From positions 37,913 through 61,912 of the forward strand of contig JBAZMA010000010.1 in NCBI GenBank assembly GCA_041649995.1: a stretch of 24,000 nucleotides of DNA, read 5' to 3'. The position numbers were made by a program, and so were the translations under genes. The DNA is from Candidatus Omnitrophota bacterium. GTDB taxonomy: Bacteria; Omnitrophota; Gorgyraeia; Velamenicoccales; Velamenicoccaceae. How positions within the stretch are numbered: position 1 is the stretch's first letter; the number at the start of each line of letters is the position of its first letter. This document shows positions 11,605-22,689 of this stretch, piece by piece. Below the pieces are notes generated by a model, which searched no databases, was not told the origin of the DNA, and saw only the letters and a program-made list of their open reading frames with translations.

Positions 11605-11660
11605 ATTTCCAGTTTTTCAGGCAACGGTTACCAGGCAACAGCAACAACTTATGGCTTATA

Positions 11661-11951
11661 GCGTCCGAATCCGATTTCCGACTTCTGATTTCGGACTTCA
11701 GACGTCAGATTTCCGATTTCCGACTTCTATCTTCTGCTTTTGCTATAAGCCATATGCTATAAGCCCTTGCTATAAGCTCTATGCCATACGCTCTAAGCCA
11801 ATCCTTCATTCTTAATTTTTAATTGTTCTTCGTCCCACGTCCGAACGTCCTCACGGTCATCGTCCTTCATCCCTCGGATTCTGACTTCTGCTTTTGCTAT
11901 AAGCCATACGCTATATGCTATAAGCTATACGCCATTCGCCATACGCTATAA
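11661..11951. repeat. Degenerate heptanucleotide tandem-repeat tract filling the purH-folC spacer
   Basis: On the + strand, in phase: GATTTCC GACTTCT GATTTCG GACTTCA GACGTCA GATTTCC GATTTCC GACTTCT (11673-11728). Then GCTATAA GCCATAT GCTATAA ... (11742-11803). Then CGTCCCA CGTCCGA ... (11831-). Then eight in-phase GCYATWN units (11896-11951). A 24-bp exact repeat, CTTCTGCTTTTGCTATAAGCCATA, occurs at 11731-11754 and 11885-11908. No ORF of 60 aa or more is present. Confidence 0.85.
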
Positions 11952-18994: not shown

Positions 18995-19090
18995 AAGGCC
19001 GCAATATTTCTTTTTTCCGACGGAAAAGACTTTAAAAAATTTTTTAAGGAATTTTCCGCGCAAAAATGGAAATATTTCTCTCAACGCTTT

Positions 19091-19900: not shown

Positions 19901-20655
19901 CGGTCCTCCTTGATCAGGCGCAGAAATTCCTCTTCCATGCTGCCCTGACGCAGAAAATCCTGCCTCTCCCCGATCTTCAAAACCCTCCCCTTGCTGATCA
20001 AGGCGATCCGGTCCGACAATTTTTCGATCAACGGCAGTGTGTGCGAAGACATGAAAATCGTCTTGCCCCTGTTTTTCAGGATCAGGACGGCTTCCCGGAA
20101 ACGCTCGACAGCCAAAGGATCCAGATACACCGTGGGTTCATCCAGGAAAATGATATCCGGGTCATTGACCAAAGCCAGCATAAAATCGACCAGCCTGCGC
20201 TGCCCCATCGAAAGCTTGCGCACAAGGACAAAGCGCTCCTGGGTCAATCCGGTCATCTCCAGAAGAGACTGGATACGGTCGATGGTGACATCATCGGTTA
20301 AGCCGTAAATTCTGGAAAAAAAAGTCAGAATCTCTGTGACCGTCAAATACTCCGAGGCCAGGGTATTCTCCGGAACAAACCCGATGCGTTCCAGCGGCCA
20401 CGTTTGAGGACAACGGAAGGCTTTGCCAAAAAGCTCAATGGAACCGGCCGAAGGCTTGGAGATTCCGGTAAGCAAGTGAAGGGTCGTGGTCTTGCCGGCG
20501 CCATTGGGCCCCAAAAAACCGAAGATCTCTCCGCGCCGCACTTCAAAATTCAGGTCCCAGACGGCGCGGACACGGGCGCGGGAAAACAGGGCAGAGGACC
20601 GGAACTCCTTGCCCAAGCCGCAAACTTTTATGATCGCAGGGGATTGTTCGGCCAT
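19897..20655 (-). CDS. ABC transporter ATP-binding protein
   Basis: Walker A is GPNGAGKTTTL, the signature motif is LSMGQRRL, Walker B is IIFLDEPT, and the H-loop is SSHTL. Confidence 0.93.
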   Translation of the reverse strand: MAEQSPAIIKVCGLGKEFRSSALFSRARVRAVWDLNFEVRRGEIFGFLGPNGAGKTTTLHLLTGISKPSAGSIELFGKAFRCPQTWPLERIGFVPENTLASEYLTVTEILTFFSRIYGLTDDVTIDRIQSLLEMTGLTQERFVLVRKLSMGQRRLVDFMLALVNDPDIIFLDEPTVYLDPLAVERFREAVLILKNRGKTIFMSSHTLPLIEKLSDRIALISKGRVLKIGERQDFLRQGSMEEEFLRLIKEDR

Positions 20656-21263
20656 AAGCCTAAAAGGTGAAGTTGACGGCGGATATCCTGAGCCGAAGTG
20701 AAGACCAGGGAACGGATGCCTAAGGCCTGGGCCGCCTCCACCAGGTCCTTTCGGTCGTCGATATAAAGGGCGTCGCAGGCCCGGGCTCCGCAGGACGCGA
20801 GGGCGGCCTCATAAATCAAGGGGTGGGGTTTGCGCCGCCCGACCTCATAGGAAAGAATGATCCTGTCGAAGACATCCAGATGGGAAGGAAAATGCTTTTG
20901 AATGTAGCGGTAATGGAGTTCATTGATATTGGAAACAAGATGCAGCCGGAAATCTTTTTTCATCTCCCGCAGCAAAGCCAGCATGCCGCTATTGTCGAAA
21001 AAAATCCCGCTCCAGGATTCCGAGAAATTATCATACGTCAAATCCCGGCCGCCCAGCGCCTGGTTCATCCGCTCAAAAAAAACCTTCGAGGAGATACGGC
21101 CCTCCTCATAATCCTCCGTCAATGAGGAATCAAAAAACAGCTGGTAGGCTTCATCGAAGGACTTGGAACAATAAGGCAGGATGCTCTTAACGGCGATCCG
21201 ATGATCAAAATTGATAAGGACATTTCCGAGATCGCAAAGGATCAGCTTGACTGGGCTTTTCAT
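20628..21263 (-). CDS. HAD-superfamily hydrolase (subfamily IA, YihX-like phosphatase)
   Basis: Motif I variant LILCDLGNVLINFD, ...HLVSNINE and ...GRRKPHPLIYE...LYIDDR. The 3' end overlaps the ABC ATPase start by 28 nt. Confidence 0.85.
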   Translation of the reverse strand: MKSPVKLILCDLGNVLINFDHRIAVKSILPYCSKSFDEAYQLFFDSSLTEDYEEGRISSKVFFERMNQALGGRDLTYDNFSESWSGIFFDNSGMLALLREMKKDFRLHLVSNINELHYRYIQKHFPSHLDVFDRIILSYEVGRRKPHPLIYEAALASCGARACDALYIDDRKDLVEAAQALGIRSLVFTSAQDIRRQLHLLGLWPNNPLRS

Positions 21264-21311
21264 CGACGCCGGCTCGTTAAGTTATTATGCTTGCTGCCCC
21301 ACCCCGCTTCG

Positions 21312-21433
21312 TCGCGGGGTTTCGCTCTATCGATACATTATGGAGCTCAAGTTCGGACAATAAGTTAGTTCGCCGCCTACGGCTACCGGCTCTCTAAGTT
21401 ATGCTTCTTGCTCACCCCGATCACCTCGAAGCT
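21312..21433. repeat. 122-bp repeat core, copy 1
   Basis: By eye it is base-for-base identical to 21501-21622 (TCGCGGGGTTTCGCTCTATCGATACATTATGGAGCTCAAGTTCGGACAATAAGTTAG...CACCTCGAAGCT). Confidence 0.9.
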
Positions 21434-21500
21434 TGCAGGTGACGATGGGACCCCGCTTCGCACGATATCACAAAAATTTCTTCGATATTTTTGTGATACT

Positions 21501-21622
21501 TCGCGGGGTTTCGCTCTATCGATACATTATGGAGCTCAAGTTCGGACAATAAGTTAGTTCGCCGCCTACGGCTACCGGCTCTCTAAGTTATGCTTCTTGC
21601 TCACCCCGATCACCTCGAAGCT
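21501..21622. repeat. 122-bp repeat core, copy 2
   Basis: Identical to 21312-21433, offset by 189 bp. Confidence 0.9.
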
Positions 21623-21723
21623 GCGCAAATTTCTTACGAAATTTGCTTGCAGGTGACGGGGTTAGTTCGGGCAATAACTTAGTTCGCCGCCTACGGCTAC
21701 CGGCTCTCTAAGTTATGCCCTCA

Positions 21724-22689
21724 CTAATTATCCTTCTTGCGGGGCTTTTTGAACAGGTCCAGGAAGCTGTCCTCATACTGCTCGTAGACGCTCCATTTAT
21801 CCAGTTCTTTTTTCAGCTCAATGGCTTTGGAAAGGTCTTTTTTGGCCATGCGGAAAAGATCGTTGATCCTTTTGCGGGCTGAGTCGGGCAGGCTTGGAGC
21901 CTCTGCCAGGCCCTGCTTGATGATATCGATCTCTTTCTGGTCGATCGGCTTCTCGTCTTCCGGCGGGTTCTTCAGATACTCGATGAGATGTTCGATCTCC
22001 TGGTTTATCTCCGCGGCGCGTTTTTTGAGTTCCGTCAGGTCCAAAGACAGGTTCAGAAGCCGGCTCAAAACCTCGAGAACCATCATGGAGGCCAGGGGAT
22101 TCTCGATCTGAATGGTGTAAAGGGGAATCTCGCCCAGTAGGCAAACGCCCTCCAGCCCCCTCTCCTTGGCCACCCCCAGGATCAGACCGTTCAAACCGCT
22201 GATCTGTCCAGAAGGCATGCTTTTGACTTTCGCCTTCTCAAAATTGGACAGAAGGTCCTTGTTCGTGGCCACGGCGTAGACCTCCGGGACCTGCGTATGT
22301 TCGATCGGCAGCGGCATGGCGGCAAACGTATAGACAATACGGACCTTCATCGTCTGAATGAACTCCACGATCTCGCTGGCGTAATCGTATCCCTTTTCAA
22401 TGAAGGGTTGCGCGTCGCTGATAAAAATGATCAGGTCGGAGGCCTGGGGATTACGGAAAAAATAAAATCTGCCCACGGGGTGCTGGGGAATATCGATCAG
22501 GTTGTTATCAATCCAGACACCGGATGGGTGAAAATATTCGCAGGACTCAAGGCTGGCGAACTCTTCGGCCCCCAGCGTATCCTTAAGATAGGTCGCGGCC
22601 TTCAAGGCGACATCCCCCATCCCCGGCCAGGCGGCGATCAGAACGGGATCTTTGAGCCGTATGCGTTTTTTAATGTGTATGGATTTCAT
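21724..22689 (-). CDS. PAC2 (proteasome assembly chaperone 2-like) family protein with a C-terminal coiled-coil extension
   Basis: LKDPVLIAAWPGMGDVALKAATYL...FHPSGVWIDNN...FYFFRN...DLIIFISDAQP...VYTFAAMP resembles the PAC2-family core. The last 110 aa or so are charged and helical. Confidence 0.7.
   Translation of the reverse strand: MKSIHIKKRIRLKDPVLIAAWPGMGDVALKAATYLKDTLGAEEFASLESCEYFHPSGVWIDNNLIDIPQHPVGRFYFFRNPQASDLIIFISDAQPFIEKGYDYASEIVEFIQTMKVRIVYTFAAMPLPIEHTQVPEVYAVATNKDLLSNFEKAKVKSMPSGQISGLNGLILGVAKERGLEGVCLLGEIPLYTIQIENPLASMMVLEVLSRLLNLSLDLTELKKRAAEINQEIEHLIEYLKNPPEDEKPIDQKEIDIIKQGLAEAPSLPDSARKRINDLFRMAKKDLSKAIELKKELDKWSVYEQYEDSFLDLFKKPRKKDN

Follow-up and report, generated by a model that had tools for sequence, protein, structure and literature searches.

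A modular interspersed repeat array, probably inserted between PAC2 and HAD genes in one lineage of Candidatus Omnitrophota

The window analysed here, a stretch of 24,000 nucleotides, belongs to the MAG of a Candidatus Omnitrophota bacterium related to Ca. Velamenicoccus. The Omnitrophota are uncultivated, ultra-small bacteria, many of them probably predatory or host-dependent. In this window, the genes encoding a PAC2-family protein and a HAD-family phosphatase, both on the minus strand, are separated by a gap of 460 nt (21264-21723). An ORF scan found none of at least 60 aa in the gap, the largest ORFs that overlap it being of 55 and 49 aa; a tRNA/tmRNA scan found none, and no promoter or terminator consensus was found within the region. 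The repeat search of the window revealed a 122-nt exact direct repeat with a period of 189 nt and a 55-nt submodule (the A unit) that starts at 21350, 21539 and 21664, with identities of 100%, 100% and 96%, respectively. The same search located a truncated fourth A copy plus linker, at 78% identity (family D3), at the end of the array that faces the HAD gene. Four GC-clamped hairpins of two types, H1 and H2, each in a short and a long form, were positioned by a regular-expression map (Table 1). In addition, a 33-nt core is seen three times in the region against none expected in shuffles, and the predicted folding is much stronger than that of shuffled sequences on both strands (z -4.6 and -6.0). 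The positions that the initial annotation had given for the 122-bp cores, the 55-nt submodules, the hairpins and the ORF-free gap were all confirmed base for base.

Table 1. Modules of the PAC2-HAD array and its flanking genes, in window coordinates.
Feature	Position	Strand	Description
PAC2 family protein, upstream flank	21724..22689	-	Pfam PF09754, E 1e-37; MFA5039438.1
Conserved array terminus ("head")	21712..21727	-	minus strand reads TTAGTGAGGGCATAAC; includes PAC2 stop TAG 21724-21726; stops in all three frames
A unit 3 (head unit)	21664..21718	-	9-bp hairpin ATAACTTAG/CTAAGTTAT, extended by GGGC/GCCC, around invariant core GAGCCGGTAGCCGTAGGCGGCGAA
H2-long	21604..21661	-	GC clamp CCCCGATCACCT/AGGTGACGGGG with inner palindrome GCAAATTTC/GAAATTTGC; also in L039 (twice) and L040
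Linker copy 2	21594..21603	-	minus strand TGAGCAAGAA, then G; joins hairpin to next A unit
A unit 2	21539..21593	-	derived G, giving G/G mismatch in stem
"Link" module copy 2	21510..21538	-	plus strand TTCGCTCTATCGATACATTATGGAGCTCA; homologous link modules in L039, L040 and L025
H1-long	21450..21509	-	GC clamp ACCCCGC/GCGGGGT; inner 12-bp palindrome TATCACAAAAAT/ATTTTTGTGATA
H2-short	21415..21449	-	clamp of H2-long without inner palindrome; only in the PAC2-HAD array; missing from the ENA allele
Linker copy 1	21405..21414	-	pattern map
A unit 1	21350..21404	-	identical to A unit 2
"Link" module copy 1	21321..21349	-	pattern map
H1-short	21301..21320	-	ACCCCGC-TTCGTC-GCGGGGT; occupies the place that the H1v hairpin (CCCGCCGAAGGCGGG) has after "link" elsewhere
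Array tail	21269..21300	-	linker + truncated, diverged A unit; minus-strand end ...CATAATAACTTAACGAGCCGG, 5 nt before HAD start codon
122-nt exact repeat, first copy	21312..21433	.	3' arm of H1-type hairpin to 5' arm of H2-type hairpin
122-nt exact repeat, second copy	21501..21622	.	exact duplicate of first copy
HAD-family phosphatase, downstream flank	20628..21263	-	Pfam PF00702 + PF13419; MFA5039437.1

Throughout, arrays are read in the sense of the PAC2 and HAD genes, hence along the window's minus strand. The features listed for the gap stand, but the element had been drawn too short at its upstream end: it reaches 21726/7 and so takes in the stop codon of the PAC2 gene.

The comparison with related genomes points to an insertion at this site. 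In L043, whose PAC2 is at least 90% identical, PAC2 and HAD are 8 nt apart; the distance is 6 nt in L012 (PAC2 89% identical) and 44 nt in L008-L011 (85%). None of the array modules occurs in the syntenic DNA of the relatives (96 kb). Since the two genes lie 6-44 nt apart in three close relatives, the array is an insertion; judged by these syntenic sequences, the 271-460 nt that it occupies are a recent, lineage-specific addition between otherwise almost contiguous genes. An empty site is also found in relatives between the GH57 and uppS genes, where they read GGCTTTTTTT^GTCATCC and the filled site reads GGCTTTTTTT^AGTGAGGGC.

The immediate borders of the PAC2-HAD array were inspected as well. 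The HAD start region (21245-21263, ATGAAAAGCCCAGTCAAG) resembles the 3' end of PAC2 (21735-21750, AAAAAGCCCCGCAAG), the two having AAAAGCCC..CAAG in common (p about 0.008 by shuffling). Additionally, the N-terminus of the HAD protein is unlike that of all three relatives, and the GTG start codon of L008 corresponds to GTC in the window. The likeness may represent a decayed target duplication that was recruited as a new start codon.

The modules of the array are not confined to this locus. A 22-mer core scan of JGI metagenomes returned 18 stretches, five of which are contigs of a single metagenome (Ga0265297) carrying array modules. Twelve of the 18 are chance matches within unrelated coding sequences, mostly a high-GC gene of Solirubrobacterales type (...FAAYGYRLYS...), and one further match (L027) was rejected, as nothing else of the repeat family matches there. 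The three matches of a 25-mer scan of GTDB species representatives likewise lie inside Solirubrobacterales coding sequences (...FAAYGYRLYS...) and are attributed to chance. Such exact 22-25-nt matches to the A core in coding sequences (L005, L006, L007 and 12 loci of L013-L030) would mislead any copy count made with k-mers only. Chance coding matches aside, no module was found outside the one MAG in the GTDB, JGI, viral, phage, plasmid or Rfam searches; the viral contigs and the phage and plasmid collections gave no match to the array, and about 41 kb of the window's own contig hold no further copy.

The proteins beside the JGI arrays are MFA5038276, 8277, 8716, 9051 and 9651, and the PAC2, HAD and EF-G proteins of the window are MFA5039438, 9437 and 9432. 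Given that these NCBI accessions run consecutively from MFA5038276 to MFA5039651, the contigs and the window were taken as one MAG, whose GH57 branching enzyme clusters at 90% identity or more with the enzyme of Ca. Velamenicoccus archaeovorus. Two of the JGI contigs end within a single array in the ENA assembly ERZ27247363, and since the ENA contigs join them at one locus, the genome contains five arrays. Three full A units plus a truncated one are found at PAC2-HAD, four in the DUF362-pyrG spacer, four between a 2-hydroxyacid dehydrogenase and a cupin gene (downstream of the dehydrogenase), one plus a partial unit at GH57-uppS, and one at NfeD-Band_7, which amounts to 13 full A units in the family. 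A unit 3 of the window obtains 67 bits in nhmmer searches, and the equivalent units of L025, L039, L040 and L021 obtain 65-67 bits. The genes next to the arrays (pyrG, uppS, NfeD, a dehydrogenase, PAC2-HAD) are unrelated to one another; four of the five arrays lie between co-oriented genes and in sense orientation. The proposal of the initial annotation that the gap holds a modular, BOX/REP-like mosaic repeat is thus borne out by four further arrays with shuffled modules, making five unrelated loci, and by the empty site in the nearest relatives.

The five arrays have a common, polar architecture. All of them share the head, TT^ARTGAGGGCATAACTTAG, with a fuller start of the form TT^ARTGAGGGCATAACTTAGRGAGCCGGTAGCCGTAGGCGGCGAA(G)CTAAGTTAT. 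On its 5' side the head is flanked by TTTT in three arrays, by TCTT in one and by AATT in one, and three of the five flanks are T-runs of intrinsic-terminator hairpins; the upstream gene takes its stop codon from the TAG of the head both in the window and at the dehydrogenase locus. Beyond the head follow one to four units, all in the same orientation, the order of modules being distinct in each array. Each unit, of about 125-190 nt, comprises a linker (TGNCAGTAAG-like), an A hairpin, a tail or "link" module, and a GC-clamped hairpin of H1 or H2 type; TGCCAGTAAG, TACCAGTCAG and TGTCAATCAG are among the linker variants at the equivalent position in other arrays. The far ends, on the other hand, are five different truncation points: twice within A, once after A, once in the A-tail hairpin and once in the linker.

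Comparison across the family also allowed us to polarize two differences between the copies in the window. The central stem base of the A hairpin had been correctly recorded as G (G/G) in copies 1 and 2 and as C in copy 3, while the idea that copy 3 restored the C-G pair does not hold: the pairing base (C) is present in 11 of the 13 full units and is the family consensus, and the G of units 1 and 2 is a derived mutation common to the two duplicated units. As regards the hairpins, three arrays have H2-long and three have H1-long, the H1-long homologues being those of L021, where a compensatory change has turned an A-T pair into G-C, and of L040, with two copies, one of them without the 5' inner arm. 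Because other arrays carry the long forms, while H2-short is confined to the array of the window, deletion or fusion is a more likely origin for the short forms than nested insertion is for the long ones; the inner palindrome would have been lost, or the hairpin fused at the common ACCCCGCG/CGGGGT clamps. The nested AT-rich palindromic insertions of the initial annotation are accordingly doubtful, as the inner palindromes are seen exclusively within their GC clamps and it is the long forms that are usual in the family.

The strong folding of both strands, the sense orientation of most arrays and the presence of compensatory changes in the stems would agree with a structured non-coding RNA, or a tandem cis-regulatory RNA for HAD or PAC2, in which the clamps and variable distal stems were conserved RNA helices; structured RNAs with conserved clamps had also been considered by the initial annotation. 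Comparison of the arrays revealed three compensatory double substitutions in H1 and H2 stems. Two of them separate H2-long from H2v, a diverged form present in L039 and L025, and the third separates the H1-long of the window from that of L021; the H2-long/H2v changes were read by eye, the MAFFT alignment having had the 3' arms out of register. Pair counting on the five-sequence H1 alignment gives one compensatory pair, a level that 186 of 500 shuffles reach, and with only five H1 sequences covariation is uninformative. The stem changes of the A units, moreover, are one-sided. The palindromes are maintained, and a DNA hairpin would explain the compensatory changes as well as an RNA one. Rfam at gathering thresholds gave no match in the window, L039 or L040, in agreement with the earlier statement that no known RNA family was recognised; the permissive search (E up to 10) returned only noise at E values of 0.096 and above (HOTAIR_2, FourU, snoR64, Acido-Lenti-1), far below gathering scores. 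In this regard, an RNA gene or cis-regulator is hard to reconcile with a locus that lacks the array in three close relatives and carries no promoter or terminator consensus inside it, with modules that adjoin unrelated genes and are thus tied to no gene family, and with a module order that changes from array to array. We therefore regard the RNA reading as a distinctly poor candidate and favour the mosaic repeat.

The repeat family differs between assemblies at two loci. At PAC2-HAD, the ENA contig is exactly 189 nt shorter, being without H2-short, H1-long and one 122-nt repeat; a single recombination between the 122-nt repeats would convert the 460-nt form into this 271-nt form. The Logan contigs (SRR8542065) break in the A unit, pass from "link" to H1-short without a branch and fit the 271-nt form. 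The extra 189-nt unit thus rests on one assembly, and it might be argued that the true locus is 271 nt long, the additional unit having been threaded in from elsewhere by the assembler, as the ENA and Logan contigs would allow. However, the repeats enclose 67 nt of unique sequence, so the 460-nt form is not derivable from the 271-nt form; as the conversion fails in this direction, the extra unit is unlikely to be a simple assembly artefact. Indeed, H2-short and an H1-long variant distinct from the L021 and L040 copies, both contained in the extra 189 nt, occur only there in the data. To cycle through the 122-nt repeat, moreover, an assembly requires reads that truly join repeat, 67 nt and repeat, and both flanks remain syntenic. 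An artefactual tandem copy is hence improbable, and the 271-nt array is in any case present in the ENA contig and in part in two Logan contigs.

A second difference concerns NfeD, where the JGI contig has one unit and the ENA contig none, the NfeD protein being identical and intact in both. The filled site (L021 1-330, compared with the empty L042 6330-6480) is accompanied by a perfect 38-nt duplication of the 3' end of the gene. Its junctions can be parsed in two ways, each of which requires one coincidence, and the microhomologies at the junctions (TTGTCAAT, AACCCC) are fit by no single simple model. No target duplication was found at the arrays of L025, L039 and L040, so a clean one is seen at the NfeD locus only. 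The remaining three arrays do not differ between the two assemblies. What our results show, then, is a family that has dispersed over five loci of one genome and is polymorphic between assemblies with identical flanking proteins.

The arrays resemble several known classes of bacterial repeats, yet they fail one or more defining features of each. Like the BIME/REP elements of enterobacteria and pseudomonads, which are mobilised by RAYT, they are non-coding, intergenic and often located just past a gene end or terminator, and consist of mosaics of palindromes and short linkers that are combined in varying ways and whose unit number varies between strains; the two GTAG motifs in the A core add to the likeness. 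A REP, however, is an imperfect palindrome of 20-40 nt with GTAG at its 5' foot, whereas the A hairpin is of about 45 nt and carries both GTAG motifs in its loop (GGTAGCCGTAGG). Furthermore, BIME units of about 35 nt alternate in orientation, and the units here, of 125-190 nt and in only five arrays, all point one way and are polar with one conserved end. The BOX elements of Streptococcus pneumoniae (boxA-boxBn-boxC) are similarly modular, intergenic and strongly structured by prediction, with a conserved terminal module and a variable internal number. Compared by architecture, BOX has two defined ends (boxA and boxC), whereas only the head is conserved in our arrays and the tail differs in all five; the family is also of lower copy number and was found in one MAG only. 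With the MIRU-type VNTRs of mycobacteria the arrays have in common the location between co-oriented operon genes, mostly in sense, the overlap with the upstream stop codon (at PAC2-HAD and the dehydrogenase locus) and a unit number that varies between assemblies. MIRUs, by contrast, have units of 40-100 nt with small ORFs that couple translation, while the arrays are strongly palindromic, and their head stops all frames and leaves no through-reading ORF.

The pattern of insertion has parallels of its own. Class C group II introns insert after terminators, as do the three of five heads directly behind a terminator T-run, and the target-primed retroposition of LINE/SINE elements also leaves one end fixed and the other variably truncated, in line with the 38-nt target duplication. 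The likeness is one of pattern only: the arrays have no intron domains or ribozyme motifs in Rfam and, unlike LINE/SINE elements, no poly(A) tail. MITEs are distinguished by terminal inverted repeats and a short duplication of fixed length, whereas the two ends of an array do not form inverted repeats, and one array has a 38-nt duplication and three have none. PATEs derived from IS200/IS605 have subterminal hairpins at both defined ends and insert 3' of a fixed tetra- or pentanucleotide; the arrays have a head hairpin, a flank limited to TT and a variable other end.

The A hairpins might also be regarded as attC sites of an integron cluster without integrase (CALIN), the H modules then being cassettes without ORFs. 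In integrons, attC sites carry an inverse core RYYYAAC (R'') and a core GTTRRRY (R'), and the A unit is bounded by the similar GCATAAC...GTTATGC; polar, same-oriented units with variable "cassettes", in arrays scattered as CALINs are, would also be in line with this idea. Each of the two cores (GCATAAC and GTTATGC), however, is off consensus at one position, the helix is a perfect 9-bp one with neither extrahelical bases nor an unpaired central spacer, and the "cassettes" are themselves repeated palindromes. In addition, the head junction TT^ARTGAG is incompatible with G^TTRRRY, and no integrase was found in the approximately 107 kb of the MAG examined. A CALIN is consequently extremely improbable; CRISPR, retron ncRNA and group II intron remnant readings, like that of attC, were set aside on anatomy.

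Taken together, these findings make it likely that the 460-nt gap is a lineage-specific, non-coding, modular interspersed repeat array, inserted between genes that are adjacent in the nearest relatives. The family is probably a previously undescribed one: a young, probably still active, non-autonomous mosaic of BIME/BOX/MIRU-like type. Its copy number (five arrays, 13 full A units) counts against this view, being far below that of the classical REP, BOX and ERIC families, and RAYT genes were not found in the same 107 kb.

With regard to mechanism, the fixed head and variable tails suggest that units would be copied from the head outward, the tail ending at variable points, and that a trans-acting enzyme would place the copies beside T-rich sites. 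Candidate routes include an HUH-type nuclease with one-ended rolling-circle copying, target-primed reverse transcription and microhomology-driven template switching. Local changes could then follow, with unequal recombination or slippage between the 122-nt segments giving rise to variation in unit number, and palindrome excision or fusion at the common GC clamps producing the short and long hairpin forms. For the host, the effect would be incidental: PAC2 would be uncoupled from HAD and stable hairpins would be placed in the operon transcript where, by analogy with REP/BIME elements, they could protect the upstream mRNA or dampen read-through.

A more specific proposal, which we consider unlikely, is that the arrays are a bacterial SINE-like retroposon. 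A host RT would copy an RNA in the plus sense of the window, ending in ...GCCCUCAYUAA, into DNA, starting from a nicked T-run such as that of a terminator or at a gene end, which would yield a fixed 3' end, variable 5' truncation, microhomology joins and long target duplications of variable length. We know of no description of this combination of fixed end, truncation and long duplication for non-intron elements in bacteria. As a lead and not as evidence for retroposition, Ca. Velamenicoccus archaeovorus is reported to have an expressed retron-type RT "between a gene duplication" (PMC13153191).

If the head, the tail and the duplication do reflect reverse transcription or one-ended rolling-circle copying, the arrays would represent a new route by which repeats spread in bacteria. 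No intergenic repeats are described in the Omnitrophota and Velamenicoccus literature searched. As the family was found in a single MAG among the collections searched, with alleles that differ beside identical flanking proteins, it constitutes a rare case for study near its origin, in which one can see sites with and without the element, units gained and lost, and modules shuffled at common GC clamps. On the practical side, the family breaks short-k-mer assemblies at its loci and separates formerly coupled genes, and differences in unit number could act as a strain marker.

Other sequences of note were observed in the same genome and in its relatives. Upstream of pyrG, L039 6505-6632 contains a perfect sigma-70-like promoter (TTGACT-17-TATAAT) followed, after about 70 nt, by a strong terminator hairpin; the head of the array is inserted exactly after the T-run of this terminator, and the segment may be a pyrG leader/attenuator or a small RNA. 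Upstream of purH, window positions 11640-11951 hold a second dispersed repeat family, whose heptamer-based tandem runs (TCCGACT, GCTATAA/GCC) together form a large imperfect palindrome and which matches L039 6180-6339 and 1795-1860, L018 10643-10802 and L040 6963-7032 at 72-84%. This purH-type repeat and the A array are both found in the DUF362-pyrG spacer of L039. Between a D-Ala-D-Ala ligase-like gene and the next minus-strand ORF, the window also carries an AT-rich, near-perfect palindrome (19003-19076; self inverted match of 82% over 76 nt). Finally, in Ca. Velamenicoccus archaeovorus (CP019384; L032 4579-4680) the GH57 stop codon and the terminator behind it are set apart by an unrelated hairpin insert (ACTCCTTCGGAGATAG...CTATCTCCAAGAGGAGT) of about 100 nt, against 12 nt in the relatives L033-L038, which suggests that related genomes may harbour other intergenic repeat families.
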